A DNA stretch of 64,000 nucleotides from a virus: the UHGV virus genome UHGV-1550212; one strand, given 5' to 3'. Every line of letters begins with the position of its first letter. The stretch's first letter is position 1. Made by a program: the position numbers and the translations under genes. The notes under the pieces were generated by a model that was given only the letters and a program-made list of their open reading frames with translations, made no database searches and had not been told where the DNA came from. This document shows positions 15,136-62,262 of this stretch, piece after piece.

Positions 15136-15160
15136 ATCAGTTAATTTGTTTGTATATGTA

Positions 15161-15232
15161 TTCGAATGTGCACACATGAGAATAGGTCTCTTCGAATGTG
15201 CACATATGAGAATAAGTCTCTTCGAATATGTA
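15161..15232 (-). repeat. tandem ~30-bp direct repeats (2.4 copies) with TGTGCACA palindromic core
   Basis: TTCGAATGTGCACACATGAGAATAGGTCTC (15161-15190), TTCGAATGTGCACATATGAGAATAAGTCTC (15191-15220), then a partial copy TTCGAATATGTACACA; sits between a terminator and the gene start. Confidence 0.6.
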
Positions 15233-15266
15233 CACAAAAAGAAGAGCTTGCATATGCAAGCTCTTC
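15233..15266 (-). terminator. rho-independent terminator
   Basis: Perfect palindrome GAAGAGCTTGCATATGCAAGCTCTTC (15241-15266) followed on the minus strand by TTTTTG; 43 nt downstream of the stop of 15309..15692. Confidence 0.55.
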
Positions 15267-17948: not shown

Positions 17949-18006
17949 GTTGTTTATCTTAAGTTTGTATATGTACAAATACTGTTGATGTTGTATTGAA
18001 GCATCG

Positions 18007-18065: not shown

Positions 18066-18962
18066 TTACAATGTTCCGCAAAGCAATTCACGTAAATCCA
18101 TGCCAGCTTGTGTACTATACTGAGCAATAAGATTACGTTCTGAATCAGACATGCTCCAATAAATCTTATGCTGAGCTCTACGAATAATAGTATGAATGCC
18201 AGATGTGCTACAATTGAACTTCTTTGCAAGTTCTGCATGAGTTAACAAATCCGCATCGCCAAGGCCATACACATGTGTGAGTACAAGCTTTTCATTTTGA
18301 GTGAGTTGTTCAAATGCTCTTTGCAGAATCTTTGTGTTGCGTTTGTGAGCATCCTCGATTTCAAGAACTTCTTGGCCTGTTTTGAAGTCTGACCTCAAAT
18401 CATTCTGAACTGGTGACCATGCATCACCATCTTTATCAAGTGTAGTGTCATCCTTACTGGTGAATTGTTTGCCTTCAAGAGCTCTTTCATATGCTCCACG
18501 AATACCAGTAGATAATTGTTGACTTGTCAGATTGAGTTCGTCAAGCACATATTTCTTAATCCAAGGATATGCATATGTGCTAAACTTTGCTTCACGAACT
18601 CCTGCAGGCAATACGCCTTCTACGTAATTCTTGGCTGCTATTGACAATCCAAGATTGCCTGCTTGAATGACGTCATCCAATGGAACCGAGCGTTTGCCAG
18701 ATGCGAACCATAAGCTTCGTGCAACTGATATGACCAATCTTAAACAAGATTTGATAAGAGCTTCACGATTTTCTTGAGTCTTCTTGAATCGAGTAACATC
18801 ACAATATCGCTTTGCAGTAGCCAGCGATTTGACTTCTTCAGGAGTAAGCTCATTCTCCATCCTCATTTGCTTGAGCTCCTCCTTTGTGTATAGACGTTCT
18901 CTTGTGATTCTACCTACGTCCTTTACGTAGCCTTGATTGATTTGTGAATTTGAACCTGCCAT
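18066..18962 (-). CDS. sigma-70-family RNA polymerase sigma factor
   Basis: 298 aa, ATG confirmed. DDVIQAGNLGLSIAAKNYV...KFSTYAYPWIKKYVLDEL matches sigma-70 region 2 (DLIQEGNIGLMKAV...RFSTYATWWIRQAI); C-terminal HAELAKKFNCSTSGIHTIIRRAQHKI is a region-4-like helix-turn-helix. Confidence 0.6.
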   Translation of the reverse strand: MAGSNSQINQGYVKDVGRITRERLYTKEELKQMRMENELTPEEVKSLATAKRYCDVTRFKKTQENREALIKSCLRLVISVARSLWFASGKRSVPLDDVIQAGNLGLSIAAKNYVEGVLPAGVREAKFSTYAYPWIKKYVLDELNLTSQQLSTGIRGAYERALEGKQFTSKDDTTLDKDGDAWSPVQNDLRSDFKTGQEVLEIEDAHKRNTKILQRAFEQLTQNEKLVLTHVYGLGDADLLTHAELAKKFNCSTSGIHTIIRRAQHKIYWSMSDSERNLIAQYSTQAGMDLRELLCGTL

Positions 18963-19064: not shown

Positions 19065-20123
19065 TTATGAACGTCTTGTTAACAATGCATGACCACAATC
19101 ATAAACTGCAACATAGCCAGTGTTAAGCATCTCTTGCTCATCTTGGCCGGCGTCTACAATATGTTCTTTGCTGTTAAGTTTGACCCAGTGCTTGCAGATT
19201 GTTGATTTATCATCTGACAATTTAGGGTTAATGCAGAAGTCTGTTGAGTTTATTGTGTTGTCGAGATGTTGTTTGATGACATCGACAACTTGCTCTGGTG
19301 TCATCCAATCAAACACTGTTATGCAAGTGTAGCCATATTTGAGAGCAAGTTGAGCTTTGTTGAAGTGATAGTCGAATGGAATTGGATGATTGTGTTTTGA
19401 TTTGCCAATTGCATATGCATAGCCATATGTAGAGTTGTGACTGATTGTTGGGCAAATTTCAATCAGCAAATGCTTATAATGCAGGTCATATGACTGGCGT
19501 TCAATATTGACGTCATCACAGTCAAATGCAAGCCCAAGTTCTTGTAACAGCAAAGTTTGCCATCGTTTGTTTGTAGCTGATATGACATTTTTGTGAGCAT
19601 TGCGACATTTTTGATGCATACAAAAGAATGGGACACCATATTTTTGCTGCATCAATTTAGTGTCAATGCCTGCTGCATTGCCATAACGTTCAAGCTTCGT
19701 TGCTCTAATTTTGTCAGCATCACCCCAAATGTTGCCATATCGTTTGCGCTTTGTGTCTTGAGACTTCTTAATGTTGCCACTGCGGTTGCCATAAATAAGT
19801 TCCTTTGATTGACACGCATGTTCAGCAGCATCTGGCCCATATATGTGACCGTATTTTTGAAGCTTAATTTCATTGATACGTTCTACTGGGCCATTTGGAT
19901 GACCATAGCGTTCTTGTTTGATGCGTTTTGTGTGCTCAATTGTTGACTTTAATGCAAGCTTTGACGTGACGCCAAATTTGCGCAAACAGCCTATTCTAAT
20001 ATTGAAACTACGTTTAATATGTGATGCTTCTATTTTTGTAACAGCCAATTGCAATGCATCATCACGTTCAGTTTCAAGCATGCAAATTTGTTCATCAATT
20101 GTCATAGCATCAAACCATTTCAT
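19065..20123 (-). CDS. homing-endonuclease-like protein, paralogue 1 (tandem R/K-YG repeats plus C-terminal putative nuclease domain)
   Basis: 352 aa, ATG confirmed. Five repeats of the type K.ERYGHPNGP / KLQKYGHIYGP / RKRYGNIWGD / LERYGNAAG / QQKYGVP, then a conserved C-terminal block (YDLHYKHLLIEICPTISHNS ... VYDCGH) shared with 35290..36585 and 48845..49876; free-standing between conserved genes. Confidence 0.4.
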   Translation of the reverse strand: MKWFDAMTIDEQICMLETERDDALQLAVTKIEASHIKRSFNIRIGCLRKFGVTSKLALKSTIEHTKRIKQERYGHPNGPVERINEIKLQKYGHIYGPDAAEHACQSKELIYGNRSGNIKKSQDTKRKRYGNIWGDADKIRATKLERYGNAAGIDTKLMQQKYGVPFFCMHQKCRNAHKNVISATNKRWQTLLLQELGLAFDCDDVNIERQSYDLHYKHLLIEICPTISHNSTYGYAYAIGKSKHNHPIPFDYHFNKAQLALKYGYTCITVFDWMTPEQVVDVIKQHLDNTINSTDFCINPKLSDDKSTICKHWVKLNSKEHIVDAGQDEQEMLNTGYVAVYDCGHALLTRRS

Positions 20124-21720: not shown

Positions 21721-21758
21721 CAAACAAACAAAAAGCTTGACTTATTCAGTCAAGCTTT
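21721..21758 (-). terminator. rho-independent terminator
   Basis: Stem AAAGCTTGACT / AGTCAAGCTTT followed on the minus strand by TTTTGTTTGTTTG; overlaps the last codons of 21742..22233. Confidence 0.45.
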
Positions 21759-26295: not shown

Positions 26296-26357
26296 ATTGT
26301 TCAGATGTTTTGCTTTGTATATGTATCGAATCTCATTGCATTTGATTATGTATCACT

Positions 26358-34198: not shown

Positions 34199-35221
34199 TT
34201 ACAAAAGTTCCGATTCGAGATTTTGAACTGGTTGAAAAATCTGCTTGATTCCCTCTGGAAATCGAAACGGGGCTTCACCCTCCATGTGACACTTCGGGCA
34301 AGTGAACTTGATATTGTTAGATGCAAGAATCATGCACTTAGACAGAATCTTCAGCTTAAGCGGCAATTCTTTGAATGCATCCATTGCTTGGAACGACTGA
34401 CAAATTTGCTCAGCTTTCTTGACATTAAGACCTCGCCAATCAGGTGTAAGCCACTGAGCTGCAAGAATGTATGTCTTTGCGTTCATCAATGTGTCTTTGT
34501 CAAGTGTTCGCATGTACTCTGCAAAAACTTTGCCAACGCCGATTGTCGATGGCTTGAGTACAAGTTCGCCATACGAACGAGTTTGAACTCGATAGCAGCC
34601 GGTTTCAGAATCAATGTATTTGTCCATTGATTCATCGGGCTCATCCCAAGTCATATTGTCAGCAGTTAAGTCAAGCTTAAAATTATGCTTGCAAGTGCCT
34701 GATGAAATTTCCAGCGTAATCGGGTTTGTCAGCTCAGAGTTCTCAGGGAATGTGAGGTCGTGAATCAACATTATCAGGTACCACTTGTCGTGTTCGTATA
34801 TATCATCAACTGACCAATGATTCATGCCAGACTTGCTGACGCATCGAACGCATACCTTAACAATGTCGTTCAAATATGTTGCTGCTTCAGCTGGATTTGC
34901 ATTGTCATCAAGATTCGACCAGTGACGAATTTCACCTGCTCGACATGCTCGATAGATAATTTGCAAATCACTTGGGTACAGTCGACCTTGCTTAGCAAGC
35001 TTCGTCATGTCAACATTGAACCAGCCAGTGTCTGTAACTTCTGATTGACGTGCTCTTTCTGCAATACGCTCTTGAGCTACTTCAGTTGCAGCATCAATTG
35101 CGCTATCATTGACTCTTGTAGCTGCTTCAGCTTCTTCTACTACAGATGCAAGCGGATTGTTTCTACCCGCATTCTCACCGCCATCTGCTGGAATGACGAG
35201 ACGTTTCTTTTCTTGTGGCAT
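34199..35221 (-). CDS. hypothetical protein (tail module, upstream of tape measure)
   Basis: Track ORF 34199..35284; start placed at ATG 35219-35221 (MPQEKKRLVIP); 340 aa. Confidence 0.45.
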   Translation of the reverse strand: MPQEKKRLVIPADGGENAGRNNPLASVVEEAEAATRVNDSAIDAATEVAQERIAERARQSEVTDTGWFNVDMTKLAKQGRLYPSDLQIIYRACRAGEIRHWSNLDDNANPAEAATYLNDIVKVCVRCVSKSGMNHWSVDDIYEHDKWYLIMLIHDLTFPENSELTNPITLEISSGTCKHNFKLDLTADNMTWDEPDESMDKYIDSETGCYRVQTRSYGELVLKPSTIGVGKVFAEYMRTLDKDTLMNAKTYILAAQWLTPDWRGLNVKKAEQICQSFQAMDAFKELPLKLKILSKCMILASNNIKFTCPKCHMEGEAPFRFPEGIKQIFQPVQNLESELL

Positions 35222-35289: not shown

Positions 35290-36585
35290 CTATTGTTTGC
35301 GTTGTAATGTCAGTAGTCCACAGTCATATACAGGTAAAAATCCTGCAGCATTGTAGTCTTCTGCATGTGATATGTCATTGTCTATAAAATGCTCACCAGT
35401 TCGCATATTATGCCAATGACATTGTATAACATTGCTTACTAATTTATAGTCATCTACATATTTTGTAGGGTCTTCTTTTGACAAGTCTATTGTAATAACG
35501 TCGGCAGTTTTCAATTGTTCTGTGTCATCGATGATTGACTTTAGCAATGCGACAATTGTATCAGCGTCATCCCAATCCCAAATTGTGACGCATCGATAGC
35601 CTTGCGACATTGCTTTGCAACATTTGTCTGCATGACTATTTGCATGTCTATGCCAATTTGCTGCAGAGCGGCCTGTCATATACTCAAAGCTATACGCACT
35701 ATTATGCGTAAACGTTGGATTGATTTCAATTGCTATGTTCTCATAGCGTAAGTCATATGTAAATGATTCTATTTGCGGTTGCTCAAACTCAAATTGAACG
35801 TTAAGCGATTCTAACAAGTATCGTTGCCACCATTGATTTTGCTTAGATATGATGTGACCTTGCGCAAGTTTACAATGTGTAGTCATGCAATAATATGGCA
35901 CACCATAACGCATCATATTTGTACGTACAACTGCTTGTGTGCGTCGTTTTAAGTCACCGCCCCACTTGTTGCCATACCGTTCAAGCTTTGTTTGCGTTGC
36001 CAGTTGTATATTCACACATCCATTTGCTTTGCCATATCGTTCAAGTTTGACTTGCGTAATTTTGTCCATAGGCCCAAATGCATTACCAAATTGTGCAATC
36101 TTTGTAGCTTTCATTTTGTCAATATTGCCAACACCTTTGCTGCCAAATCGAACAAGCTTAGTGTCGCCAACTTTGCATTTAACATCATGCAATTGTGATA
36201 TGAATTCTACACCGTATTTGAGCAAGTTATTGATGCGACCATTATAACGCTGTTTAATGATGCCATGCGATGTTTTGCGTGGTGCATAACGAACAAATGG
36301 TGTATTAGCAAGTTCAGCATCTCGCAATTCTTCAAGTTCTTTTATTCGAGCTGCATGTTCAGATGCGTTATCATATTGCAACGCGCCAGCATGACGTTCA
36401 TATGGCAATCTTCCATGCTTACGTATGAAAGCAATTTTGTTTGCATATTGCACACGTATCTTACTATGTGTAGATACTCTTGCGCTTAATTTTGCATATG
36501 GCGTTTCTGCAATCAATTTATCACGTTCAGCTTCAAGTTCTTTTATTCGAGCTTCAAGAGCATCACCAGTTAGTCGTTCAGCCAT
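35290..36585 (-). CDS. homing-endonuclease-like protein, paralogue 2 (with internal N-terminal module duplication)
   Basis: Track ORF 35290..36633; start placed at ATG 36583-36585 (MAERLTGDALEARIKELE). Coiled-coil N-terminal module present twice (nt 36300-36360 and 36500-36560 share CTTCAAGTTCTTTTATTCGAGC), R/K-YG repeats, C-terminal block IEINPTFTHNS ... VYDCG. Divergently adjacent to the terminase start. Confidence 0.4.
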   Translation of the reverse strand: MAERLTGDALEARIKELEAERDKLIAETPYAKLSARVSTHSKIRVQYANKIAFIRKHGRLPYERHAGALQYDNASEHAARIKELEELRDAELANTPFVRYAPRKTSHGIIKQRYNGRINNLLKYGVEFISQLHDVKCKVGDTKLVRFGSKGVGNIDKMKATKIAQFGNAFGPMDKITQVKLERYGKANGCVNIQLATQTKLERYGNKWGGDLKRRTQAVVRTNMMRYGVPYYCMTTHCKLAQGHIISKQNQWWQRYLLESLNVQFEFEQPQIESFTYDLRYENIAIEINPTFTHNSAYSFEYMTGRSAANWHRHANSHADKCCKAMSQGYRCVTIWDWDDADTIVALLKSIIDDTEQLKTADVITIDLSKEDPTKYVDDYKLVSNVIQCHWHNMRTGEHFIDNDISHAEDYNAAGFLPVYDCGLLTLQRKQ

Positions 36586-36652
36586 TGTGCATGAATGTTC
36601 AATATGTAAATTCACTATATGTACATATAACACGAATATTCAAGTTAGATGC

Positions 36653-38644
36653 ATGGCTGAAGTCAAGAATCAAGTGTTTAATCCAGTAGCACAATTCAAA
36701 TCTGCTGAAGAAAAAGAAGCTGCGAAAGTTATATGGTGCAGTGAATCAGTCGCAATGGCATATGATGCAGTTGACCAAGGCTTGCCACTTAGAGCAAATC
36801 CGTGGTTCTTTGGCAATATTGCACTGCGTAAGCCCGGATTGCTATACAGATACACTGACATAGAATTGCGTGAATGGCTTAGATGCAAGTATGACATATT
36901 ATATTTTGCTGACACATGGTGTCAGATTTTAACTCCAGATGGCACAAGAAAGCATTTTAATTTGAGACCATATCAACGCAAAATGCTGCGTGCATATCAA
37001 CGACAAAAGTATACGATAGTTCTTACTGGGCGACAAGTAGGCAAAACGGTCGTTACATCAGTATTTCTCGCTTGGGCAGTCATTTTCAATCGTGAGCTTA
37101 ACATAGCAGTACTTGGCGACCGCTTGGCAACATCAAGTGAAAACCTGAACAAAACAAAAGACATCATAAACAATCTGCCGTTCTTTATGAAGCCTGGTGT
37201 GTTTGTTTGGAATGGCGGAATGGTCGCATTTGACAATGGTTGCAAAATTATCACAGGTACTGCTCAAAAGTCATCACTTGTCGGTAAGACAATTCACATC
37301 TTATATCTTGATGAGCTCGCAATTCCACCTGCTCAGCAATCAAAGACTCTTGTAGATTATGCATTGCCAACAATTGCGTCATTGCCAACTGGCAAAGTTA
37401 TCGTAACATCTACGCCATCTGGTGATAATGTGTTCAAGACTTTGTGGCTTGGTGCAATTAACAAAACAAATGGCTTCTTTCCAATTCAAGTAAACTGGTG
37501 GGATATTCCTGGCCGTGATGAAAAGTGGAAAGCTGAGCAAATCGCAATTCTTGGTGAAGATGCTTTCAATGAGCAATACAACTGCGTGTTCTTGTCAGGT
37601 GCAACGTCAATTTTCAATTCAAGAGCAATTGATGATATTGCAAGACGACAGCAAAAGTATGAATTTGTTGCTGATGAGCGTCTTGAATCACTACTCAGAT
37701 TCTTCATTGCTGATTCAGATGTCGGCACTGAACCCGAGCCGCACTCATTTATGACTTGGCGTGCAGATATTGACCCAGCAACACTCAAAAATGAAACATG
37801 TATCATCAATATTGACATTGCTGAAGGTTTATCTGGCGACTTTTCTGTCATACATGTGCATCGTATAGTTGACATTACAAAAGATGTTGAACTTGAACTT
37901 GATGCAAGCAATCTGTATGATATGTTTGACGATGACAAAAAATCATTGTTTGCAAAAGCAGTTGAAATGCAACGTCAAATGTCAGCAACACAAGCTCAAG
38001 ATGATGACGATGATGACGATGACGACTGGTTTGGCGCAGACGATGATGTCGCTCAAGGCGTTGATGCATATCAAGATTATGCGAATGCTGCAGTAGAAGA
38101 GATTGGCTTATGGCGTTCAAATGTGACATCAATCAAAGTCATGGCTCTGTATTTGCAGTTCTTAATGACGTATGTGTTTGATGCAAACAAAACAAAGATT
38201 ATCTATGAACGCAACAAATATGGTGGAGAGTTTCGTTCATATTGTTTGTCTGAACGTGCACGCAATATTGCAATTGATGAAGAGAGCTTCGTAAGCTTCC
38301 AACGAACTCTTGGTTCAGAACAACTTGCACCAGGCTGTTCAATTACGCCTGGCACCAAACCAGTGTACGTAAGACAGCTCAAAGACCTTATTGAAACTGG
38401 CAAGATTCTTGAAAACAATGCAGATACGCAAAGAGAGCTTACATATTTTGGCGGTGTCAAAGGCAAGAATGGTCACGTGTCATATCAGGCGTCACCTGGC
38501 TTCCATGATGACATTGCAATGACTCTTGTATCTCTTGCAGCATTTATGGACACTCGATGCAATGACTGGCTTGAACTGCTTGATGTGTTCTACAATGGCA
38601 GCAGTCAAACAAGTTCTGATGATGACGATGATGACTGGATTTGA
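36653..38644 (+). CDS. terminase large subunit
   Basis: ATG at 36653 (MAEVKNQV); the track's 36425 start overlaps the neighbouring minus-strand gene. ATPase motifs LTGRQVGKT (Walker A) and ILYLDELA (Walker B), followed by a nuclease-type C-terminal half. Contains an internal D9-W-F tract (38000-38029) and ends DDDDDDWI. Confidence 0.7.
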   Translation: MAEVKNQVFNPVAQFKSAEEKEAAKVIWCSESVAMAYDAVDQGLPLRANPWFFGNIALRKPGLLYRYTDIELREWLRCKYDILYFADTWCQILTPDGTRKHFNLRPYQRKMLRAYQRQKYTIVLTGRQVGKTVVTSVFLAWAVIFNRELNIAVLGDRLATSSENLNKTKDIINNLPFFMKPGVFVWNGGMVAFDNGCKIITGTAQKSSLVGKTIHILYLDELAIPPAQQSKTLVDYALPTIASLPTGKVIVTSTPSGDNVFKTLWLGAINKTNGFFPIQVNWWDIPGRDEKWKAEQIAILGEDAFNEQYNCVFLSGATSIFNSRAIDDIARRQQKYEFVADERLESLLRFFIADSDVGTEPEPHSFMTWRADIDPATLKNETCIINIDIAEGLSGDFSVIHVHRIVDITKDVELELDASNLYDMFDDDKKSLFAKAVEMQRQMSATQAQDDDDDDDDDWFGADDDVAQGVDAYQDYANAAVEEIGLWRSNVTSIKVMALYLQFLMTYVFDANKTKIIYERNKYGGEFRSYCLSERARNIAIDEESFVSFQRTLGSEQLAPGCSITPGTKPVYVRQLKDLIETGKILENNADTQRELTYFGGVKGKNGHVSYQASPGFHDDIAMTLVSLAAFMDTRCNDWLELLDVFYNGSSQTSSDDDDDDWI

Positions 38645-38651
38645 TTTGTGA

Positions 38652-38709
38652 CACATCATCACAAAACAAGCCAGCAGAATTGTCTGCTGGCTTGTTTTGT
38701 GATGATGTG
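38652..38709. terminator. long perfect hairpin between convergent genes (bidirectional terminator)
   Basis: 27-bp arms CACATCATCACAAAACAAGCCAGCAGA / TCTGCTGGCTTGTTTTGTGATGATGTG with a 4-nt loop; between the terminase stop (38644) and the DHFR stop (38713). Confidence 0.6.
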
Positions 38710-38712
38710 CTG

Positions 38713-39216
38713 TCATCGTTTTCGATGGAAGACTTTGAATTTGTATCGTAACGTTCTGTCATTATCTGTGCATGTGTATAGTGCAGACTCAGATTTTTTA
38801 GTCCACATTCGCCAATTGACTGCAGGAAATCGAACGTCGCCTTCAGCATAATTGTCAATCATCGTCAAGTACATTCTGTCTGCATAAATCATTGCTTCTT
38901 CAAACAACTTAGAACCGCCGATGATAAACATGTTAGACGCAAATGCAGACTTGCAATATGCTATTGCATTGGCTAGCGTGCTAAATACGAAATAGTCGCT
39001 TGTTGGCTGCAATGTAGAGCTTATAACAATGTTAATTCTGTCGGGCAAGGGCTTGCAATTCATCGACTCAAAAGTCTTACGACCCATGATGACAATGTGA
39101 TTCTTTGTGAGTTTCTTGAAGTGCTGCAAGTCATGTGGAATATGCCAGGGCAAATCACCATTGCGACCTATGACATTGTTATTTGATACTGCTGCTATGA
39201 TATTGATGTATTGCAT
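38713..39216 (-). CDS. folA: dihydrofolate reductase
   Basis: 167 aa, ATG confirmed. IIAAVSNNNVIGRNGDLPWHIP...IVIMGRKTFESM...FIIGGSKLFEEAM aligns motif-for-motif with bacterial/T4 DHFR (IAALAVDRVIGMENAMPW...VIMGRHTWESIG...MVIGGGRVYEQFL). Confidence 0.8.
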   Translation of the reverse strand: MQYINIIAAVSNNNVIGRNGDLPWHIPHDLQHFKKLTKNHIVIMGRKTFESMNCKPLPDRINIVISSTLQPTSDYFVFSTLANAIAYCKSAFASNMFIIGGSKLFEEAMIYADRMYLTMIDNYAEGDVRFPAVNWRMWTKKSESALYTCTDNDRTLRYKFKVFHRKR

Positions 39217-39231: not shown

Positions 39232-39537
39232 TTATAATGAGTCAGACACTACAGATGCATATTGCAAGACCTGTTTGCGAATATCACTGCCAATCAGTCG
39301 TTCATACTGCAGACGCAGTTTTGTAACTGTCATATTATCTGGCAGTTCTTTGATTTTGATGAACACACCAGCTCTATGACCTTTATCGATGTAGCCGCAT
39401 TTTTCACACATATTGCGCAAATTGTCGACGTATGACTCTTTGTCATTGACTGCAGATAGCATTTGCTGTCTGCTAAATGAATCGCCAATTGCAATTGATG
39501 CTATGAATTGTTTGAATGAATCCCAAGCAGTCATCAC
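39232..39537 (-). CDS. hypothetical protein
   Basis: 101-aa ORF abutting the DHFR gene. Confidence 0.4.
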   Translation of the reverse strand: MMTAWDSFKQFIASIAIGDSFSRQQMLSAVNDKESYVDNLRNMCEKCGYIDKGHRAGVFIKIKELPDNMTVTKLRLQYERLIGSDIRKQVLQYASVVSDSL

Positions 39538-41757: not shown

Positions 41758-41832
41758 TTGTTTTGATGCAAAATGCAAAACAATATAAAATTGTTTTGAT
41801 GCAAAATGCAAAACAATATAAAATTGTTTTGA
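41758..41832 (-). repeat. tandem 33-bp repeats (2.3 copies) carrying the TGCATTTTGCATC core
   Basis: GTTTTGATGCAAAATGCAAAACAATATAAAATT x2 plus a partial copy; 26 nt upstream of the Cys-rich gene and just downstream of the ligase stop. Reverse complement of the motif in the 728-875 array. Confidence 0.6.
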
Positions 41833-41835
41833 TAT

Positions 41836-43973: not shown

Positions 43974-44417
43974 TCATTGCAATTGTTTTTGATACGCTAT
44001 CAATTCATTAAGCAATTCATCTGCATGACATTGAACAAGCAGTTGCCACGTTTTTGAATCAATGCCCTCAGTTTGCATATACAAGTCTACTACTCGTTTG
44101 TCAAACTTGTTTATTGCATCTACAGTAGCATTACTTGCAGGTTTGTCAACTTTCTTACCGCTGATAAAAGACCATTTTGGCTGTCTTGCATTACCAAGTT
44201 CTCTATGATAAGCATTCATAACTTGTGTCATGTCCATACCGAGTTTGTTGAATGCTTGAGCAATCTGCGGAAAGGCTATGGCAACATTGCGATTTGTCAT
44301 GAATGCATTGTCTGCTTTTTGTTTTGCAGTCAACTTATCATAATCGCTATCACGAACATACAATAGCTCCTTGAATTTGAAGAAGTCTACTTTTTGTGTG
44401 ATGAATTGTTCTGCCAT
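43974..44417 (-). CDS. hypothetical protein
   Basis: 147-aa ORF, ATG confirmed (cat 44415-44417); first gene downstream of promoter-like element 44433-44478. Confidence 0.45.
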   Translation of the reverse strand: MAEQFITQKVDFFKFKELLYVRDSDYDKLTAKQKADNAFMTNRNVAIAFPQIAQAFNKLGMDMTQVMNAYHRELGNARQPKWSFISGKKVDKPASNATVDAINKFDKRVVDLYMQTEGIDSKTWQLLVQCHADELLNELIAYQKQLQ

Positions 44418-45213: not shown

Positions 45214-46557
45214 TCAGAATTGAAACATGTTGTTGATAAACGTATCGCCAAACTGCGCATCTGCAGCTTTTGACGTTATGTCATACGTTGCTGCATTGAT
45301 GCCGAGTGCAGTTATTGTTGATTGCGCATCTACAAGTTCATACACTTTGCAGCTTGGCTTTGTAATGTCTGTAAACGACATTGTGTACATGAAGTTTTCA
45401 AAGATATGTCTTGGTACTTCACGTGCATTCAAACATGCAAGTTGTCTATTTTCTGCAAATCGCGCCTTGAGCCATTCAAAGTCATCTGCAGGTACTGAGT
45501 CAACATTCATGAATGTCTTATATGCTGCAGTCAAAAACATTGCAATGACTTCGTCATCATACAAATCTTCACCAAGCATATATCGCATGCCAGGTTCCAA
45601 CTGTTTTGCATTGTCAGTTTCAATACCAAGAGACTTCAATGCATCGTAGATTTGGCCTACAGATAAATGCGACCAATTGTTGCCACGTTTCTTGAGCTTG
45701 CCAAACAATTCTGGGATGTTGTCACCAGCATCACCAAGCACAATCTTGTAAAACAAGAAACTTGGCACATGTTCATGAATCTCTGCATCAACATACTCAA
45801 GCAATGCTGCATATGGGTTGTCAAGAATGCGTGTTTTAACTTGAGCACCAGCAAAGCTGTCGAAGATGCTGCCGCCGACATTCTGCGACTTTTCACCAGC
45901 AAGTTCTTTGATGTGTTCAAGCACAAACTTGTCGCCCATCAGTACTCGAGACTTCTGCCACCCATTTGCTTTGCAGCCATTTTTGATGATTGCATATGCT
46001 GAACATGCGCCAGTGTATGTGTCAACACAAACACATTGAGTCAAGTCTTTGTCAGTGCCTTGATACAACACATTGCGGCCTTTTGACGTTGCATATCTGC
46101 TAAGCATGAAGATGACATCATCAGCTTCTGCTTCAGAAAGCTTAATGTGACGAATGCCATGCACTTCTTGCATCAACTTCAACCAGTCAAAGTATACACC
46201 ATAAACTTTGAGCCAGTTGATTGTCTGGTCATATGTTCGAGTGCCTTTGTAACCAGCATCTTCACCTTGTTCAAAGCCCTCTCTTGTCAAGTATTGATGC
46301 TTTGAGCGCCACAAATTCGACTTTTTGTCATCGACCGCAATGATGACATCATCAACAACATCTTCAAGTCTACGAAGCTCATTACAAAGGTCGAGCGTTA
46401 ACTTGGATATCAAAGACAGTCTTGATGCATTCTCATTCTTTTCGAATGACAAGTCTGTGCCTGATTTTGCTAATACTGGCACTCTGCTCTTCAACCACCA
46501 GCTTCCATCAATTACGTAGATGAACTTGTGATTATGAGTATTGTCAAGCTTTGTCAT
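45214..46557 (-). CDS. 5'-3' exonuclease / flap endonuclease (T4 RNase H-like)
   Basis: 447 aa, ATG confirmed. FIYVIDGSWW (N-terminal metal-site I.D motif), VIIAVDDKKS, LSEAEADDVIFML and GTDKDLTQCV match the FEN/T4 rnh acidic motifs. Confidence 0.55.
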   Translation of the reverse strand: MTKLDNTHNHKFIYVIDGSWWLKSRVPVLAKSGTDLSFEKNENASRLSLISKLTLDLCNELRRLEDVVDDVIIAVDDKKSNLWRSKHQYLTREGFEQGEDAGYKGTRTYDQTINWLKVYGVYFDWLKLMQEVHGIRHIKLSEAEADDVIFMLSRYATSKGRNVLYQGTDKDLTQCVCVDTYTGACSAYAIIKNGCKANGWQKSRVLMGDKFVLEHIKELAGEKSQNVGGSIFDSFAGAQVKTRILDNPYAALLEYVDAEIHEHVPSFLFYKIVLGDAGDNIPELFGKLKKRGNNWSHLSVGQIYDALKSLGIETDNAKQLEPGMRYMLGEDLYDDEVIAMFLTAAYKTFMNVDSVPADDFEWLKARFAENRQLACLNAREVPRHIFENFMYTMSFTDITKPSCKVYELVDAQSTITALGINAATYDITSKAADAQFGDTFINNMFQF

Positions 46558-47401: not shown

Positions 47402-47797
47402 TCATCGGTTCTTTGAAAATGAAACTTGTGTTGATTGCTGTGGTCGTATATCGACAAACACTGAATCTACTGCGTCAAACTTAAGTGTCGCAAGTGAATC
47501 AATTGTCTGTCTTGCTTTTTGCAACTTGCGTGCTTTGATGCCTGATACTGTTGCAGACTTTTCAAGCAGATATGCATCACGAGGCGTCCAGTAACGAGCT
47601 TGCCAACGCATATGCATAGAGTCAACAATCAGATTTTCTGCTGCAGCGTCAATAATTGCCGCAGTTGATTGCTGAGTTGCATCAAGTCGTTGCTGCAACA
47701 CTGCTAATTGTTTTGTGTGCTGTTGCTGATGTTTGAATACTATGCTGATTGCTCCAAATAAGAGAAACCATGCAATAAACTGCAAAAATGACTTCAT
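47402..47797 (-). CDS. hypothetical membrane-anchored protein
   Basis: 131 aa, ATG confirmed; N-terminal hydrophobic segment FLQFIAWFLLFGAISIVF. Confidence 0.4.
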   Translation of the reverse strand: MKSFLQFIAWFLLFGAISIVFKHQQQHTKQLAVLQQRLDATQQSTAAIIDAAAENLIVDSMHMRWQARYWTPRDAYLLEKSATVSGIKARKLQKARQTIDSLATLKFDAVDSVFVDIRPQQSTQVSFSKNR

Positions 47798-48768
47798 GAT
47801 TGCTGCACGAATTTTGAGAGCTCGAATGATAATGCGAGCATTGTTATGAATTGGTCAATTGATTGTTTCGACTCTACACCGTATTTGTGAGCTGCAATGA
47901 CAATGTCTCCAAGTCGTGCAACAAAACCGGGTGTGTTCTTTGAGAGCTTTGCATAGCACCAATTTGCAAAGTCAGTTGAGAGAGCATTGATGACTTCGGT
48001 TTCACGACCTTTGTATTGTGACAGTGTTTTGTAAAATTCACGTGGGTCTTTGCATGCAACAATGAAATCATACAGTTCTTCAAACTTTGCTGACATGCCC
48101 TTTGTGACATGCTCAAGCGTTATATGACGCTCGCCTTGATTGAAGACAAAGTAGCAAATGTTCAGAATTTTGCGGAAGTCTGGGTAGTTATCTTGAATTA
48201 GCTTGATGAGCGCTTCTTTTTCAATTGTGCATTCATTTTCCTTCAAGATATTGTAGACGCGAACCATGCATTTCTTCATCAACTGTTCTGCGACATCATC
48301 AGAAAAGTCGAATGATAGCATTTTGAGACGAGATTGAGCAATTGATGCATCAATGCGGTCTGGATAGTTGCAAGTTGCAATGAAAAACGCGATGCCTGCA
48401 AACTCTTCAATGGTGCCTCTTAAAGCCATCTGACTTTGCACAGATAAAAAATCCATTTCATCAAGCAGCACAACCTTTACGCCACTTGACGACAATGACA
48501 TATGCTGACAGAATTCTGAAATTGTGTTGCGAACTGTGTCAATGCCAGAATTCTTTGAGCAGTTAATTTGCAAAATTGAACGCCTATCAGTCCACTTCAA
48601 TGCCAATGCTCTTGCTGCGGTTGTTTTTCCACTTCCTGGTGCTCCTGCGAACAAATAATTTTGCGGCTGACCATTAAATGCTGCAGCATAATCATCAGGC
48701 ACAATTAACTCTTCGACTTTTGTTGGCCTGTAGCGTTCTAACCAAGTTTTATCTTTAAGGGATGCCAT
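47794..48768 (-). CDS. sliding-clamp loader ATPase (T4 gp44-like AAA+)
   Basis: Track start 48801 is TTG; ATG at 48766-48768 used. WLERYRPTKVEELIVP, FAGAPGSGKTT (Walker A), VVLLDEMD (Walker B) and NYPDFRKIL parallel T4 gp44 (KYRPSTIDECILP, SPGTGKTT, VIVIDEFD, NFPDFRKTI). Confidence 0.75.
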   Translation of the reverse strand: MASLKDKTWLERYRPTKVEELIVPDDYAAAFNGQPQNYLFAGAPGSGKTTAARALALKWTDRRSILQINCSKNSGIDTVRNTISEFCQHMSLSSSGVKVVLLDEMDFLSVQSQMALRGTIEEFAGIAFFIATCNYPDRIDASIAQSRLKMLSFDFSDDVAEQLMKKCMVRVYNILKENECTIEKEALIKLIQDNYPDFRKILNICYFVFNQGERHITLEHVTKGMSAKFEELYDFIVACKDPREFYKTLSQYKGRETEVINALSTDFANWCYAKLSKNTPGFVARLGDIVIAAHKYGVESKQSIDQFITMLALSFELSKFVQQS

Positions 48769-48844: not shown

Positions 48845-49876
48845 TCAATTTTGCACAGCATGACCGCAATCGTACACAGGCAAAAAGCCTGCGTCAAGCA
48901 TCTCTTGTGTATCTTGTCCACAATCTTTAACATATTGTCGTGTTTTGAAATTATGCCAATGCTTATGAATTGTTGACTTGTCATCTGACAGCTGTGGATT
49001 GAGCGCGAAGTCAGTCGAGTCTACTGGTTCACCTGCAAGATGCTTTCTAATGGCATCAATGACTTCATTGTCATCCATCCATTCGAATATTGTAATGCAA
49101 GTGTAGCCATGCTTGAGAGCAAGCTGAGTTTTGTTGAAGTGATAGTCGAATGCAAGTGGATGATTATGCGTTGATTTGCCCATTGCATATGCAAATCCAT
49201 ATGCTGCATTGTGTGAAAACGTTGGGTTAATTTCAATGAGCAATTTGCAATGTTCATTGCTGTAGTTCAAATCAAATGAAAATCTATGCAATGAAATTTC
49301 ATCATAGCCACAATTGATGCAAAGTTCTTGCTGCAGTTTATCATGCCAATATTTGTTTATCGCTGAAATTGGGCGACCATTTGCATCTCTGCATCTCTTT
49401 GTCATGCAAAACCATGGCACACCATATCGTTGCAGCGTTGTTGCATTGATTTTTTGTTTAGGCCCAAATGCATTGCCATACAAGCGTTGTTTTGTTTCAA
49501 GCATTTTGTTAATGTTGCTTAGAGAGTCACCCCACTTTGCTCGTTTTGTTTCAATTGATTTTGCGACGTTGCCCCATGCATTGCCGTAGCGCTCTAAATT
49601 TGTTTGTCGTTGTTTAGCGACATTGCCCATGCCATTGCCATATTTTGCACGTTTTGATGCAACCATTTTCGCAGCAACATCTTTGCATTGATTGCTATGT
49701 TCTACACCATATTTGTGCAAACATGCTATTTTTCGATTGTACTTTGTTTTAATTGCGCCATGCGATGTTTTACGTGGCGCATATCTCACAAATGGCGTTT
49801 CTGCAAGCAATTTGTCTCTTTCCTCTTCAAGTTCTTTTATGCGAGCTTCAAGAGCTTCTCCTGTCAATTTTTCCAT
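48845..49876 (-). CDS. homing-endonuclease-like protein, paralogue 3
   Basis: 343 aa, ATG confirmed. N-terminus MEKLTGEALEARIKELEEERDKLLAETPFVRYAPRKTSHG nearly identical to paralogue 2; R/K-YG repeats; C-terminal IEINPTFSHNAAYGFAYAMGKS ... VYDCGH. Sits between the helicase terminator and the clamp-loader promoter. Confidence 0.4.
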   Translation of the reverse strand: MEKLTGEALEARIKELEEERDKLLAETPFVRYAPRKTSHGAIKTKYNRKIACLHKYGVEHSNQCKDVAAKMVASKRAKYGNGMGNVAKQRQTNLERYGNAWGNVAKSIETKRAKWGDSLSNINKMLETKQRLYGNAFGPKQKINATTLQRYGVPWFCMTKRCRDANGRPISAINKYWHDKLQQELCINCGYDEISLHRFSFDLNYSNEHCKLLIEINPTFSHNAAYGFAYAMGKSTHNHPLAFDYHFNKTQLALKHGYTCITIFEWMDDNEVIDAIRKHLAGEPVDSTDFALNPQLSDDKSTIHKHWHNFKTRQYVKDCGQDTQEMLDAGFLPVYDCGHAVQN

Positions 49877-56022: not shown

Positions 56023-56089
56023 ATTGTCGAAATCTTGTTTGTGTTATATGTACACAAAACTGCACCAGCAATTTTGCTGGTGCAGCTGG

Positions 56090-59164: not shown

Positions 59165-59880
59165 TTGAAATGTGTGGATGTTGGATTAGTGTCGGTCATT
59201 CTAACATGCCAATCATAAATGAACCATCTTGCGAGGTCATCATTTTTGATGTTATGAGTTTTGACATACTGTTCAGGACCTAATGCCTCACCAGTTTCAG
59301 GATTGACTGCGAAATGAGATTCATCTACATTAGTAGACTTGTTTTTGATGTTTGAGATTCGGAGCTTTGTATGCAGTTCAGTGCCATCAGATTGCAGTGT
59401 TTTGACATAGAATGCAGTTTTTGTCGTTGCTTCATTGTCAAGCCATACTCCAAACTTAACTCCGTGCGATTTCCAGTATGCATTGTCAGCATCCCTGATT
59501 GCTTTGAAGTTCGGGTCATCCAACCAAGGTTTGAAGACGTATACAGCATGTTGTTCTTTTCGAGTGATTTCGCCTTTGCCTTCACAAACTGTATGATACA
59601 GCCGCATTGCAGTTTCTTCATCAAAATAGTAAGTCAGATTGCCTGGCTTATCAAATGTGCCAAGCTGTTGACCATCGATTACAAGAATGAATGTGTACCG
59701 CGAATCCTTAAAGAATTCTACTTGTACAGGCTGTTTGTGCTGTTTGCTGTTAAGCAGTCTGTCAATTGTAATGACTGCCCAGTTGGTGCCTGTCTTTGTT
59801 TTGTTGCCGTGAAACAGTTCAGGATATGAAACTGTGTAAGGCAATGCTTTGTACTTCCAATGTTCATTAAAGCTTTTCAT
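59161..59880 (-). CDS. hypothetical protein
   Basis: 239-aa ORF, ATG confirmed. Confidence 0.5.
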   Translation of the reverse strand: MKSFNEHWKYKALPYTVSYPELFHGNKTKTGTNWAVITIDRLLNSKQHKQPVQVEFFKDSRYTFILVIDGQQLGTFDKPGNLTYYFDEETAMRLYHTVCEGKGEITRKEQHAVYVFKPWLDDPNFKAIRDADNAYWKSHGVKFGVWLDNEATTKTAFYVKTLQSDGTELHTKLRISNIKNKSTNVDESHFAVNPETGEALGPEQYVKTHNIKNDDLARWFIYDWHVRMTDTNPTSTHFK

Positions 59881-59955
59881 ATGTAGAGATTTTTGTAGTT
59901 TGTATCAATTGCATTCTATATCAATTGTATCTTGTATCAAATACATTATATTGAT

Positions 59956-60000
59956 ATATGATAATTGTACTACAAAAATCCCAAATTTGCACACTTTGAT
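59956..60000 (-). promoter_or_regulatory. composite promoter-like element
   Basis: Minus strand: ATCAAAGTGTGCAAATTTGGGATTTTTGTAGTACAATTATCATAT, about 75-120 nt upstream of ATG 59880. Confidence 0.5.
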
Positions 60001-60039
60001 AATCAAAAGTGCAAACAAAATTCAAAGTTATATTGTACA

Positions 60040-60069
60040 TCACAAAGTGCAAATTTGCACTTTGTGATG
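60040..60069. promoter_or_regulatory. perfect 30-bp palindrome (candidate operator)
   Basis: ATCACAAAGTGCAAATTTGCACTTTGTGAT is its own reverse complement; core GTGCAAATTTGCAC is shared with the composite promoter-like elements. Confidence 0.55.
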
Positions 60070-60215
60070 TTAAAATGCCCCATTGTACAATATTTTGTGC
60101 TATTTTGCACAAAGCAGCATGTTAAAATGTAACCATTTATAACGCTGCAAAATGTCTGCATAAAATAAGCAGCTTAGCAATCTAAGCTGCTGTCATTGTA
60201 TGCATGCAGTCACTG

Positions 60216-60701
60216 TCATTTGTAGTGCTCAGTTATGTATGCTGAGCATAGCAATACAACTGATATGCAAATGACAATGTATGTTGGTGTAATCAGTGTC
60301 ACATTAAATAGCAATGCAGTCAATGCGCATACTGTTACTGATATAAGTGTTGAAATGAATACTGCATATGTACTAAACTTGCTTTTGAATAGACGCTCAA
60401 TGATGTACGTTGTTACAATAGATAGCAAGACTATGCATACAAATAACAGCAACCAAGTTGAGTTTGACGTTGTCGGCTCTTCAATAAATTGCAATGTTGC
60501 AGATGATACTTCAATGTTGTTTGGCGCTTGTAAAGTGCCACTTGCTGCATCTGCGTACATCACAGTTAAGTAGTGTCGTTGAATTTCTGCTGCGTCTACT
60601 TTATAGATTCTATGCCATGCAACATCTGATATGATGTATGTTGCAGCCATAAATGCAGCAATGCATAGCATATAAGAGCCAAACTTTGCAATCGGTTTCA
60701 T
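60216..60701 (-). CDS. integral membrane protein (about 4 transmembrane segments)
   Basis: Track start 60749 is TTG; ATG at 60699-60701 (MKPIAKFGSYM); multiple long hydrophobic stretches. Confidence 0.45.
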   Translation of the reverse strand: MKPIAKFGSYMLCIAAFMAATYIISDVAWHRIYKVDAAEIQRHYLTVMYADAASGTLQAPNNIEVSSATLQFIEEPTTSNSTWLLLFVCIVLLSIVTTYIIERLFKSKFSTYAVFISTLISVTVCALTALLFNVTLITPTYIVICISVVLLCSAYITEHYK

Positions 60702-61079
60702 GCAAATATATTTTTGTTTGTATATGTACATAAAAGAGCAAGTTCTCAATGTGGAGAACTTGCTCAGCTGACCTGTTGCCAGGTGAAAGCGTGGTGCAGC
60801 ACCTTGTGCTGCAATGGCTATGCTGCCATCGCCATAACGGGCTGAGCATTGCCCAGCATCATTACACGACCAGCTGCATTAAGCGTACGCTTTGCTTTGT
60901 TGAAAAATTTGCCAGTTATCTGGTATCTGCACATCTATTCAAGCGACCTACTATGCAATCAAATGCCTGTCGAGCCCAATGTTTGAGCAGTTGTTTGTCA
61001 GATGCTCAGCTGACTGCAGTCTTTCTGAGTGTATCAAGTTCAGCGATTCTGCATCTTTGCTAAATGGCAATAGTTCAGG

Positions 61080-61155
61080 TGGACTCGCCGAGAATCGAAC
61101 TCGGGTCTTACATAGCGCATCCTTGACTTGGTCCTGTAAACAGGGTTGTCAACAT
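61080..61155 (-). pseudogene. tRNA-like 3' fragment (T-arm plus acceptor 3' strand only)
   Basis: Minus strand: CCGAG-TTCGATT-CTCGG followed by CGAGTCC-A, but no matching 5' acceptor strand, D-arm or anticodon arm within 80 nt upstream. Confidence 0.3.
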
Positions 61156-61160
61156 GCATT

Positions 61161-61231
61161 GCAATACGACAGGACTCGAACCTGCGACCTCGGATTGGAC
61201 GTCCGCGCTCTTACCGCTGAGCTACGTATTC
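61161..61231 (-). tRNA. tRNA, probably tRNA-Gly (anticodon TCC); Trp (CCA) not excluded
   Basis: Minus strand: GAATACG-TA-GCTC-AGCGGTAA-GAGC-GCGGA-CGTCCAA-TCCGA-GGTC-GCAGG-TTCGAGT-CCTGT-CGTATTG-C. Canonical D- and T-arms; anticodon stem has a G-A pair and position 33 is G, so the register is uncertain. Hand fold. Confidence 0.5.
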
Positions 61232-61321
61232 TTATCAATTGACTGCACTGCAATGCAATCAATCGTGCCAATGATATTTGACGCATAATTGCAGTTATGC
61301 GTAACAATTCAAATGTCATTG

Positions 61322-61394
61322 AGCCAACTGCAGGAGTCGAACCTGTAACCTGCTGATTACAAATCAGCTGCTCTGCCAATTGAGCTAAGTTGGC
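61322..61394 (-). tRNA. tRNA-Thr (anticodon TGT)
   Basis: Minus strand: GCCAACT-TA-GCTC-AATTGGCA-GAGC-A-GCTGA-TTTGTAA-TCAGC-AGGTT-ACAGG-TTCGACT-CCTGC-AGTTGGC-T; perfect 7-bp acceptor and 5-bp anticodon stem. Confidence 0.8.
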
Positions 61395-61476
61395 ATAAAG
61401 TCGTTGGGCCATTGCAACCCAAACCTATCATCTTTGTCTAACCAAAGATGCAAGTGTTCTCTTACACCACGACTTG

Positions 61477-61548
61477 TAGCCGAACTTGGAGTCGAACCAA
61501 GCTTTCGAGAATGAAAATCTCGCGTCCTAACCGATAGACGAAACGGCC
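61477..61548 (-). tRNA. tRNA-Glu (anticodon TTC), acceptor stem imperfect
   Basis: Minus strand: GGCCGTT-TC-GTCT-ATCGGTTA-GGAC-G-CGAGA-TTTTCAT-TCTCG-AAAG-CTTGG-TTCGACT-CCAAG-TTCGGCT-A; D-arm identical in form to E. coli tRNA-Glu, but acceptor pairs 6-67 and 7-66 are T-T. Confidence 0.5.
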
Positions 61549-61635
61549 AAGAGCAGTTCAAGTCTGCAGCATTGAACTGCGGAAACAATGCCTGTACGGG
61601 CAGCAAATTGTGCAGATACAGCGACATTGCAAAAT

Positions 61636-61728
61636 CACACCGAACCAAGTTTGTGGCTCTTCTGTCTCATAAAAACAAGTAATCATTACACTTGGCACCA
61701 ATGATTCTGATGTAAAAATCGGTGTGTT
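61636..61728. ncRNA. structured RNA-like element with 8-bp terminal inverted repeat (not a canonical tRNA)
   Basis: CACACCGA (61636-61643) pairs with TCGGTGTG (61721-61728); internal hairpin CAAGT-AATCATTAC-ACTTG; no T-loop consensus. Lies between tRNA-Glu and tRNA-Ser. Confidence 0.25.
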
Positions 61729-61731
61729 ATG

Positions 61732-61816
61732 CGGAGAGTAAGGGATTCGAACCCCTGGTACGTTGCCGTACAGTGGTTTTCAAGACCACCGCCATCGACC
61801 GCTCGGCCAACTCTCC
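61732..61816 (-). tRNA. tRNA-Ser (anticodon TGA), long variable arm
   Basis: Minus strand: GGAGAGT-TG-GCCG-AGCGGTCGAT-GGC-G-GTGGT-CTTGAAA-ACCAC-TGTACGGCAACGTACC-AGGGG-TTCGAAT-CCCTT-ACTCTCC-G. Confidence 0.8.
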
Positions 61817-62256: not shown

Positions 62257-62262
62257 AAGTAG

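Follow-up and report, generated by a model that had tools for sequence, protein, structure and literature searches.

The 64,000-nucleotide stretch of the virus genome UHGV-1550212 analysed here (the window), from a large uncultured phage, contains a gene for the large terminase subunit (TerL; 36653-38644, plus strand, 663 amino acids) that makes up a unit of its own, both of its flanks being encoded on the other strand. It is preceded by a divergent gene for a putative homing-endonuclease-like protein (35290-36585, minus strand, 431 amino acids, starting MAERL; DUF7487, phrog_3339) and is separated from the convergent DHFR gene by a long perfect hairpin (38652-38709). We consider it likely that the locus combines a reversed TerL unit that was inherited, a recent and polymorphic nuclease cassette accompanied by a mosaic in the adjacent TerL, and a hairpin of the two-way terminator type.

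At a locus with a rearranged appearance, this interpretation distinguishes inherited features from recent ones. Each of the components is of a known kind and current understanding is not overturned. What is new is the role assigned to DUF7487, a candidate promoter motif (TACATATA) and evidence for repeated TerL-only flips in the clade. The reversed, self-contained TerL unit would be a conserved hallmark of an under-studied group of jumbo phages, for which the motif and testable terminators are now available. DUF7487 gains a supported, if putative, role as a mobile nuclease cassette with a Vsr-type fold resembling that of I-Bth0305I, and the locus provides a clean example from nature of a nuclease gene beside a terminase at the edge of a recombined segment.

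The terminase gene and its immediate surroundings

TerL matches Pfam Terminase_6N (PF03237) at 8e-22 (78.3 bits, with a family cutoff of 22), PHROG 5989 'terminase large subunit' at 3.7e-51 and also PHROG 2 (residues 100-631). The Walker A (GRQVGKT, residues 126-132), Walker B (LYLDE, 217-221) and coupling (TSTPSG, 252-257) motifs are all intact. The protein is a T4-type large terminase with an ATPase N-domain and a putative nuclease C-domain. The C-terminus has no Pfam Terminase_6C match; it matches phrog_24361 'terminase' (residues 501-637, 7.5e-5) and carries the acidic motifs NIDIAEG and FHDDIA. The C-terminal half includes a variable insertion (about residues 410-478), which is the point where alignments to the TerL of Sphingomonas phage PAU break and which holds a run of nine aspartates (residues 450-458; 38000-38026). 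The C-terminal end reads DDDDDDWI (residues 656-661; 38618-38635).

An earlier, sequence-only reading of this DNA had described TerL as the sole large plus-strand gene of a mostly minus-strand window, and the open reading frame (ORF) map bears this out: the minus strand holds every family-supported ORF and every long ORF except TerL. The same reading was correct in placing a 67-nucleotide gap between the TerL ATG and the divergent nuclease gene (36586-36652; position 36586 is the first base of this spacer and lies outside TerL), a perfect hairpin with 27-bp arms between the stops of TerL and DHFR, and no recognisable small terminase (TerS) or portal gene beside TerL. Pfam and PHROG comparisons found neither family among the TerL neighbours, and PHROG scans of 30 window proteins gave no portal and no small terminase. 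The only other plausible plus-strand gene is a 118-amino-acid ORF at 905-1261, for which homologues were sought and none found. It may also be a real gene, because a symmetric hairpin (1333-1364) comes after it.

The DHFR gene (38713-39216, minus strand; PF00186, 1.2e-50) is the last gene of a minus-strand block of replication and nucleotide-metabolism genes. It is conserved in four close relatives (L004, L016, L028 and L029; contigs are designated by L numbers throughout). The DHFR call in L028 (3501-3875) is short, with 124 amino acids compared with 167-171 elsewhere, possibly owing to a frameshift or an alternative start.

Orientation of the terminase gene in relatives

Relatives of TerL at graded distances were obtained from a search of 5.8 billion proteins and their contigs were then compared. 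Megablast of the locus against GenBank phages gave no match, and relatives there are found at the protein level only. The nearest cultured ones are Chryseobacterium phages MA9V-1/-2 (40-47% TerL identity) and Sphingomonas phage PAU (gp87, 31-33%), all three of them jumbo myoviruses of about 213-219 kb.

TerL is reversed in L028 and L029 (about 92-95% DNA identity to the window) and in L016/L017 (93% TerL identity). The same orientation is found in L022 (74%), L023/24 and L025/26 (both 55%), L027 and L020/21 (both 54%) and L032 (39%). In the shared layout, the structural and the replication genes occupy one strand and lie on either side of a lone TerL encoded on the opposite strand. PAU and MA9V-1/-2 likewise have TerL as a lone or nearly lone opposite-strand gene between the structural and replication blocks, MA9V adding one small overlapping ORF upstream. 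In MA9V-2 this region carries a 154-amino-acid ORF 5' of TerL on the same strand (L002:7544-8008), with a sub-threshold ParB-like nuclease match.

The flanks are conserved as well. By tblastn, the window gene at 34199-35221 matches MA9V2_059 and PAU gp93, a 1237-amino-acid tape-measure-like protein matches MA9V2_061, and the genes at 43974-44417, 45214-46557 and 47794-48768 match PAU gp86, gp83 and gp76 (clamp loader). One side of TerL is thus marked by the homologue of 34199-35221 and the tape-measure-like gene, and the other by the ligase gene and homologues of 43974-44417, 45214-46557 and the clamp loader. The structural block of PAU and MA9V contains a tail sheath gene, the 34199-35221 homologue and the tape-measure-like gene. 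Unlike the window, these phages have no DUF7487 gene. Their sheath gene abuts TerL, whereas that of the window has moved elsewhere, and the hairpins after TerL are non-homologous to that of the window, MA9V having almost no intergenic space.

The gene at 34199-35221 (minus strand, 340 amino acids; phrog_36717, 6e-23) belongs to the structural module. Its homologues lie beside or near TerL in L022, L023, L025, L027, MA9V-2, PAU (gp93) and L018, and by this comparison it appears to be the ancestral divergent neighbour of TerL.

In two lineages, L018/L030/L031 (59-60% TerL identity) and L019 (56%), TerL is co-directional with both flanks; gene order is kept and only TerL is flipped. In the more distant L005, L009 and L012 it is oriented like the structural genes. 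A neighbour-joining tree of TerL nests the two co-directional lineages among reversed ones, where they are not sisters: the grouping of P0008 with the reversed P0007 group was recovered in 200 of 200 bootstraps and monophyly of the co-directional sequences in 0 of 200. The co-directional lineages not being sisters, at least two TerL-only flips are indicated elsewhere in the clade and none in the window lineage. By parsimony, the reversed state would be ancestral for the whole PAU/MA9V/window clade, and the single-gene unit would have been inherited from the common ancestor of jumbo myoviruses including PAU and MA9V-1/-2.

Insertion and mobility of the nuclease gene

In L022 the slot occupied by the nuclease gene in the window is empty: the start of the 340-amino-acid gene lies about 125 nucleotides from TerL, with nothing between. 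In the relatives with 54-60% TerL identity, the upstream side of TerL is filled by the tail sheath gene and a 191-amino-acid gene. The contents of the slot were then compared among genomes 92-99% identical to the window. The window allele is also found in L028 (96%) and L029 (88%). The allele of L016/17, whose genomes are otherwise 93-99% identical, shares just 35% identity with it and more closely resembles another of the window's copies (paralogue 3, below), and IMGVR_UViG_3300045988_149023 (the IMG/VR genome) has a paralogue-3-like gene with its parts at opposite contig ends.

This last contig (175,564 bp) begins and ends in the nuclease slot, one of its ends holding the N-part of the gene and the other the C-part (L004:1-1188, L036:1-850). 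Between the two halves is a 327-amino-acid plus-strand gene with a sub-threshold DUF6242 match, which is absent from the window. Gene distances suggest that the contig is a circularly permuted complete genome; its ends have no terminal overlap, and insertion and misassembly are indistinguishable there. A 204-amino-acid 'truncated' nuclease gene in L004 was initially a candidate deletion allele and was dropped, the contig beginning and ending inside the gene.

The gene next to TerL (paralogue 2) is one of three in the window, which are 32-43% identical. Paralogue 1 (19065-20123, minus strand, 352 amino acids) is an intergenic cassette 32% identical to paralogue 2, and paralogue 3 (48845-49876, minus strand, 343 amino acids) adjoins the clamp-loader gene and is 40% identical to it. 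In the IMG/VR genome, which is about 95% identical in this comparison, the paralogue 1 ORF is cleanly absent (8 nucleotides replace about 1.0 kb) and the central 780 or so nucleotides of paralogue 3 are replaced by about 1.1 kb of non-aligning sequence.

These comparisons show the nuclease gene to be a lineage-specific insertion into the ancestral divergent spacer between the 340-amino-acid gene and TerL, an event placed in the window lineage only. It behaves as a mobile cassette: among close relatives its slot may stand empty, hold something else or be interrupted, and its paralogues vary likewise. The sequence-only reading had suggested insertion or inversion at this locus. Insertion can be upheld for the nuclease gene, which is absent in L022 and allelic or variable among genomes about 95% identical; inversion can not be upheld in the window lineage, as discussed below.

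Presence or absence and allele replacement in near-identical genomes, the operational test for a free-standing homing endonuclease gene (HEG), are both observed. The T4 seg/mob genes and the T5orf172 genes of ICP1 provide close parallels. They too are intergenic ORFs beside a conserved essential gene, combine a repetitive DNA-binding-type N-terminus with a nuclease domain, occur as several diverged paralogues in a genome, and show presence/absence, allele replacement and a sharply bounded mosaic in the adjacent gene. They differ in their nuclease domains (GIY-YIG, HNH or T5orf172), whereas the putative nuclease of the window has a Vsr-like fold and DUF7487 repeats. An HEG 'hot spot upstream of terminase' has been described (Barth et al. 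2023, PMC10448857).

Family and fold of the nuclease gene

Paralogue 2 matches Pfam DUF7487 with 29.5 bits (cutoff 27), the match being limited to a repeat region (residues 173-239), and phrog_3339 'homing endonuclease' at 2.5e-7. It is composed of N-terminal helical 'K..T..ERYG' repeats (DUF7487), a nuclease core (about residues 245-350) and a C-terminal beta domain. In a fold comparison the core is Vsr-like, and the best structural match is the homing endonuclease I-Bth0305I. The conserved core can be written YD278..IE287-I-N-P-T-F-T-H294-N, in which D278 and E287 are conserved, H294 is invariant and N295 nearly so.

I-Bth0305I belongs with the EDxHD enzymes, a family whose defining traits are the EDxHD residues, NUMOD modules at the N-terminus and a C-terminal domain of the Vsr-like type, and which includes free-standing phage members (Taylor et al. 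2011, PMC3239194). The window family shares with it the Vsr-like fold and the domain order. The window nuclease differs in carrying DUF7487 repeats instead of NUMOD or HTH modules (no match to either was found in it), in its extra C-terminal beta domain, in lying outside any intron or intein, and in giving no sequence-level match to PDB. The nuclease is I-Bth0305I-like in fold and is not filed as an EDxHD member, because its core motif and N-terminal repeats differ.

Other searches add little. Comparison with PDB (single sequence and profile), NCBIfam and, for the C-terminal half, Pfam returned nothing useful; neither an HNH motif nor an HNH family match was found in the gene; and a literature search on DUF7487 returned nothing. 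The comparison of folds and hhalign were the sole informative approaches. The family has 409 detectable homologues, almost all of them metagenomic. Most carry PF24308, some have an N-terminal HTH_28 domain, and GenBank phages gave one weak match. Taken with its distribution, we regard the DUF7487 gene as a putative homing-endonuclease-like gene in a free-standing mobile cassette.

The mosaic 5' part of the terminase gene

A sliding-window comparison of the window with four close relatives over 33-42 kb gives identities of about 93-99% across most of the region, but of only 67-81% over the first 450 or so nucleotides of TerL in L016 and L028. This hypervariable segment (36653-37102, plus strand) covers codons 1-150, including Walker A, and occurs as three alleles: one in the window, L004 and L029, one in L016 and one in L028. 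Among them, codons 1-150 are 67-79% identical in nucleotides and 70-86% in amino acids, whereas codons 151-663 are mostly 93-100% and 98-100% identical, respectively. The breakpoint lies within an invariant TerL peptide, WAVIFNRELNIAVLGDR.

The N-terminal 150 amino acids are 76-83% identical among alleles and 81% identical to L022, while the rest of TerL is 98% identical among alleles and 73% identical to L022. Since the alleles are as far from each other as from L022, the pattern points to import of a whole segment by recombination rather than to accumulated point mutation. By analogy with known HEGs, the adjacent nuclease may be the cause: the first 150 codons would have been exchanged repeatedly by recombination, as expected beside a homing endonuclease. 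No recombination signal was seen beside paralogue 1 in the comparison with the IMG/VR genome.

A supporting analogy is offered by relatives with 33% TerL identity (L009:2394-5856, L010:5962-9424 and L012:10001-12895), whose TerL is 'fractured', the break falling precisely on the Walker A codons (GK|C...SHN|T). The N-extein, with SRQ(V/I)GK at its end, is followed by an intein-like Cys; the C-part of the intein ends SHN, followed by T and the remaining TerL. The enclosed ORF (372-380 amino acids) has a nuclease core that hhalign matches to the window family (76%, E 2e-5) and weak DUF559/MTES_1575 similarity, although the family hidden Markov model did not detect the ORFs of L009 and L012. These genes look like a split intein with a homing endonuclease gene, an arrangement of 'fractured' genes reportedly described by Dassa and colleagues in 2009. 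The family concerned is treated in PMC3239194. These genes are unlike the window, where the nuclease gene does not interrupt TerL but stands 67 nucleotides upstream on the other strand, TerL itself being intact.

The spacer and its promoter-like motif

L004, L028 and L029 have conserved the divergent spacer that separates the two ATGs, and L016 only its TerL-proximal half. The spacer contains a 14-nucleotide palindrome, TATATGTACATATA (36616-36629), which consists of two back-to-back copies of TACATATA, one 23 nucleotides before the TerL ATG and the other 30 nucleotides before that of the nuclease gene. The window has nine exact copies of this motif where 1.38 are expected, and none of 100 shuffles reached nine. 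Seven of the nine lie 17-30 nucleotides 5' of start codons in the sense orientation. Besides TerL and the nuclease gene, they precede genes starting near 15135, 17948, 26295, 56022 and 60702 (motif sites 15153-15160, 17968-17975, 26318-26325, 56045-56052 and 60721-60728, all minus-sense).

The motif can be extended to TACATATA(C/A)A(A/C)A. The leaders would be very short and a Shine-Dalgarno sequence is not obvious in them. The 340-amino-acid gene has a copy with one mismatch (TACATATT, at 35254 on the minus strand), and the motif upstream of TerL is kept in L016 and L022. The enriched unit is TACATATA itself: ATGTACAT alone is not enriched (three copies, 2.9 expected). A generic sigma-70 promoter scan was at chance level (34 hits, 32.4 expected).

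A sigma-70-family sigma factor is encoded at 18066-18962 (minus strand; phrog_351, 5e-25; TIGR02937, 67 bits). Its gene is directly downstream of paralogue 1 and just upstream of a TACATATA site. We propose that TACATATA is a phage-specific promoter element, doubled back to back in the spacer, and that the phage's own sigma factor probably helps in its recognition. TerL transcription would start at the copy upstream of its ATG, and the palindrome would allow one compact element to serve both TerL and the leftward genes.

The hairpin behind the terminase gene

The hairpin lies between the stop codons of TerL (38642-38644) and DHFR (38713-38715). Its arms (38652-38678 and 38683-38709) are paired at 27 of 27 positions around an ATTG loop, and no perfect inverted repeat in the 64 kb is longer. 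As RNA it has a minimum free energy of -54.4 kcal/mol, compared with -23.5 +/- 2.6 for shuffled sequences (z = -12), and none of 200 shuffles was as stable. A search of Rfam at this position gave no known structured RNA. The stem has a GC-rich core, GCCAGCAGA / TCTGCTGGC (38670-38678 / 38683-38691), flanked by an A-tract, CACAAAACAA (38660-38669), and a T-tract, TTGTTTTGTG (38692-38701). When the stem is trimmed to its core, CTTGTTTT-type T-rich tails follow on both strands.

Bidirectional intrinsic terminators occur between convergent bacterial or phage genes. The window hairpin resembles them in its GC stem, its A-tract and T-tract and its position exactly between convergent stops; it differs in that the A- and T-tracts pair perfectly, which accounts for the unusually long 27-bp stem. 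Symmetric hairpins are found at each of the window's two convergent junctions (1333-1364 and 38652-38709). At four co-directional junctions (2228, 56060, 60168 and 60736), by contrast, the T-tail is confined to the strand that is transcribed. After TerL, L023, L020 and PAU each have a hairpin with the architecture of that in the window, to which it is not homologous.

The core is kept in L004, L016/17 and L028, with variation in the outer stem. L028 has one mismatch and one G-U pair; the IMG/VR genome (L004, 3867-3919) has a 22-bp stem with the loop inverted from ATTG to CAAT; L016/17 have 14 bp and a bulge; and in L029 (892-910, compared with 38644-38713 in the window) the element is deleted, 51 nucleotides being lost between TTTGTGA direct repeats. 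The 27-bp perfection thus seems a by-product in an element of the terminator type, and the element itself shows some instability.

The suggestion of the sequence-only reading that the hairpin doubles as a bidirectional terminator is supported by this architecture, that is, a symmetric stem with T-rich tails at convergent stops. As a putative bidirectional intrinsic terminator, it would end transcription by offering its stem and U-tract to polymerases arriving from TerL or from DHFR, and it would work both ways because it is symmetric.

Objections and alternative explanations

A number of observations weigh against the interpretation given at the outset. The ancestral orientation is read from a tree of TerL, and in mosaic phages such a tree may not agree with that of the genome. 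In the nuclease, Asn stands in the place of the EDxHD aspartates (judged from the sequence pattern and not from a structure-based alignment), and we know of no cleavage activity or target site for the DUF7487 family. The promoter and terminator roles are proposed from sequence architecture. A co-directional junction (21732-21758) also has a symmetric hairpin, and a generic terminator scan did not call the hairpin behind TerL, the full 27-bp stem being without a following T run. Its deletion in L029 means that it is dispensable in at least one natural variant, or that the L029 assembly is wrong. In addition, TerL alleles assort independently of nuclease alleles, L028 combining the window nuclease with a different TerL 5' allele. 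Finally, there is a second sharply bounded hypervariable island at 39232-39534 (minus strand, a 100-amino-acid gene of unknown function), which has about 80% nucleotide identity to L004, L016 and L028 compared with about 95% around it. No nuclease gene is adjacent to this island, and the TerL mosaic therefore need not be endonuclease-driven.

The last two observations are also those expected if TerL 5' hypervariability reflects diversifying selection, through escape from terminase-sensing host defences or co-evolution with some partner, and not endonuclease-associated conversion. The divergence is, moreover, non-synonymous as well as synonymous. We regard this explanation as improbable, though deserving of attention: the boundary of the mosaic is abrupt and falls in a perfectly conserved stretch, the alleles are equidistant from each other and from L022, and in distant relatives the Walker A codons of TerL are the very site at which a split intein and an endonuclease ORF are inserted.

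A further possibility, which we view as speculative and rather unlikely, is that TerL with its palindromic borders (TATATGTACATATA and the terminator) is a flip-prone cassette, inverted repeatedly (at least two flips) as PAU-like jumbo phages evolved, by palindrome breakage or by endonuclease cuts in the TerL 5' part, and that the Vsr-fold HEG family of DUF7487 targets the Walker A region of TerL. If true, such targeting would drive the exchange of the 450-nucleotide alleles and link it to the split-intein 'fractured' TerL.

The hairpin could instead be mainly a DNA cruciform site, acting as a packaging or replication signal or as a recombination hotspot, or else an element for mRNA stability or RNase III. 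It is far longer and stabler (-54 kcal/mol) than termination needs, it abuts the gene for a packaging enzyme, and the inversion of its loop between relatives (ATTG or CAAT) speaks for hairpin or cruciform dynamics at the DNA level. We nevertheless find this doubtful. Conservation is confined to a core of 14-22 bp and the A/T tracts; L016/17 and L028 show decay of the outer stem, and L029 has lost the element altogether. At this position other lineages have hairpins that share the terminator architecture but are not homologous, and the Rfam result was negative.

That TerL was recently inverted or inserted here, with the nuclease gene or the hairpin marking the breakpoints, is very unlikely. TerL-only flips are real in the clade (L018/L030/L031 and L019, at least two), TerL is co-directional with the structural genes in L005/L009/L012, and palindromes lie at both TerL borders, that of the terminator being unstable (the loop flip in L004 and the deletion in L029). 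However, relatives with 74%, 54-55%, 39-47% and 31-33% TerL identity share the reversed state, without the nuclease gene and with hairpins unrelated to that of the window. In the window lineage this state therefore predates both the nuclease gene and the hairpin. The sequence-only reading had itself named synteny as the check for its inversion claim, and as the refuting outcome an identical arrangement and orientation in relatives without the HEG-like gene. Once made, this comparison turned out against it: PAU, MA9V-1/-2, L022, L023/24, L025/26, L027, L020/21 and L032 share the layout and orientation without a DUF7487-type gene beside TerL (L020/21 have an unrelated TnsA-like gene there). The window and five relatives were searched for inverted repeats on either side of TerL, with no significant ones found, and Pfam and PHROG found no recombinase nearby. 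For the window lineage, recent inversion is largely refuted. A programmed invertible DNA switch was ruled out as well, because the six genomes examined have no flanking inverted repeats and no recombinase was found close to the TerL of the window.

There is an equally slim chance that the nuclease is no selfish element but a packaging accessory that acts together with terminase, like the HNH endonucleases whose genes adjoin that of the terminase in HK97-like cos phages, replacing the missing small terminase. The gene directly adjoins TerL and shares its compact promoter region, no TerS is recognisable, and in other lineages nuclease-type genes also lie just upstream of TerL (the TnsA-like gene of L020/21 and the small ORF of MA9V-2). 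Selfish and packaging roles need not exclude each other (PMC10448857). But the gene is absent in L022, PAU, MA9V and all relatives with 54-60% identity; alleles only 35% identical occupy one slot of near-identical genomes, and the gene is interrupted at the IMG/VR contig ends; and two paralogues lie beside unrelated genes, one of them dispensable. Assignment as an HK97-type terminase-associated HNH endonuclease was rejected, there being no HNH motif or family match and the linkage with TerL being missing in most relatives. The small ORF 5' of the MA9V TerL was likewise ruled out as a guide to TerS, since it has no homologue in the window. The TnsA-like gene of L020/21 (L020:6844-8013, L021:3089-4258) encodes a 389-amino-acid protein with a TnsA-like endonuclease domain (PF08722, 1.6e-8), is on the TerL strand and overlaps the TerL start.

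Other features of the window and its relatives

Three tandem arrays were noted. Those at 711-875 (28/34-nucleotide units, 3.6 copies, 98% match) and 41758-41833 (33-nucleotide units) are non-coding, and their units each contain a small palindrome, CAAAACAA....TTGTTTTG. The first is bracketed by inverted C9 (about 617-625) and G9 (about 925-933) runs. The third (15161-15236, 30 nucleotides x 2.5) is just upstream of the TACATATA site at 15160. A regulatory or origin-like role is possible for the arrays. A 34-nucleotide palindrome, ACATCACAAAGTGCAAATTTGCACTTTGTGATGT (60037-60070), in the intergenic region 59880-60216 ranks second in length among the perfect inverted repeats of the window.

Seven tRNA genes, confirmed by Rfam, lie at 61161-62334 on the minus strand (Gly-TCC, Thr-TGT, Glu-TTC, Ser-TGA, Leu-CAA, Pro-TGG and Gln-TTG). 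ARAGORN also called a permuted tmRNA at 60727-61169, a call without Rfam support.

The genes at 2305-2919 and 2976-3575 and, next to them, the N-terminus of 3647-7975 (all minus strand) share an N-terminal domain of about 200 amino acids, 28-36% identical among them. Its homologues in L018 and L030 have a weak BACON-domain match, which hints at a Bacteroidota host.

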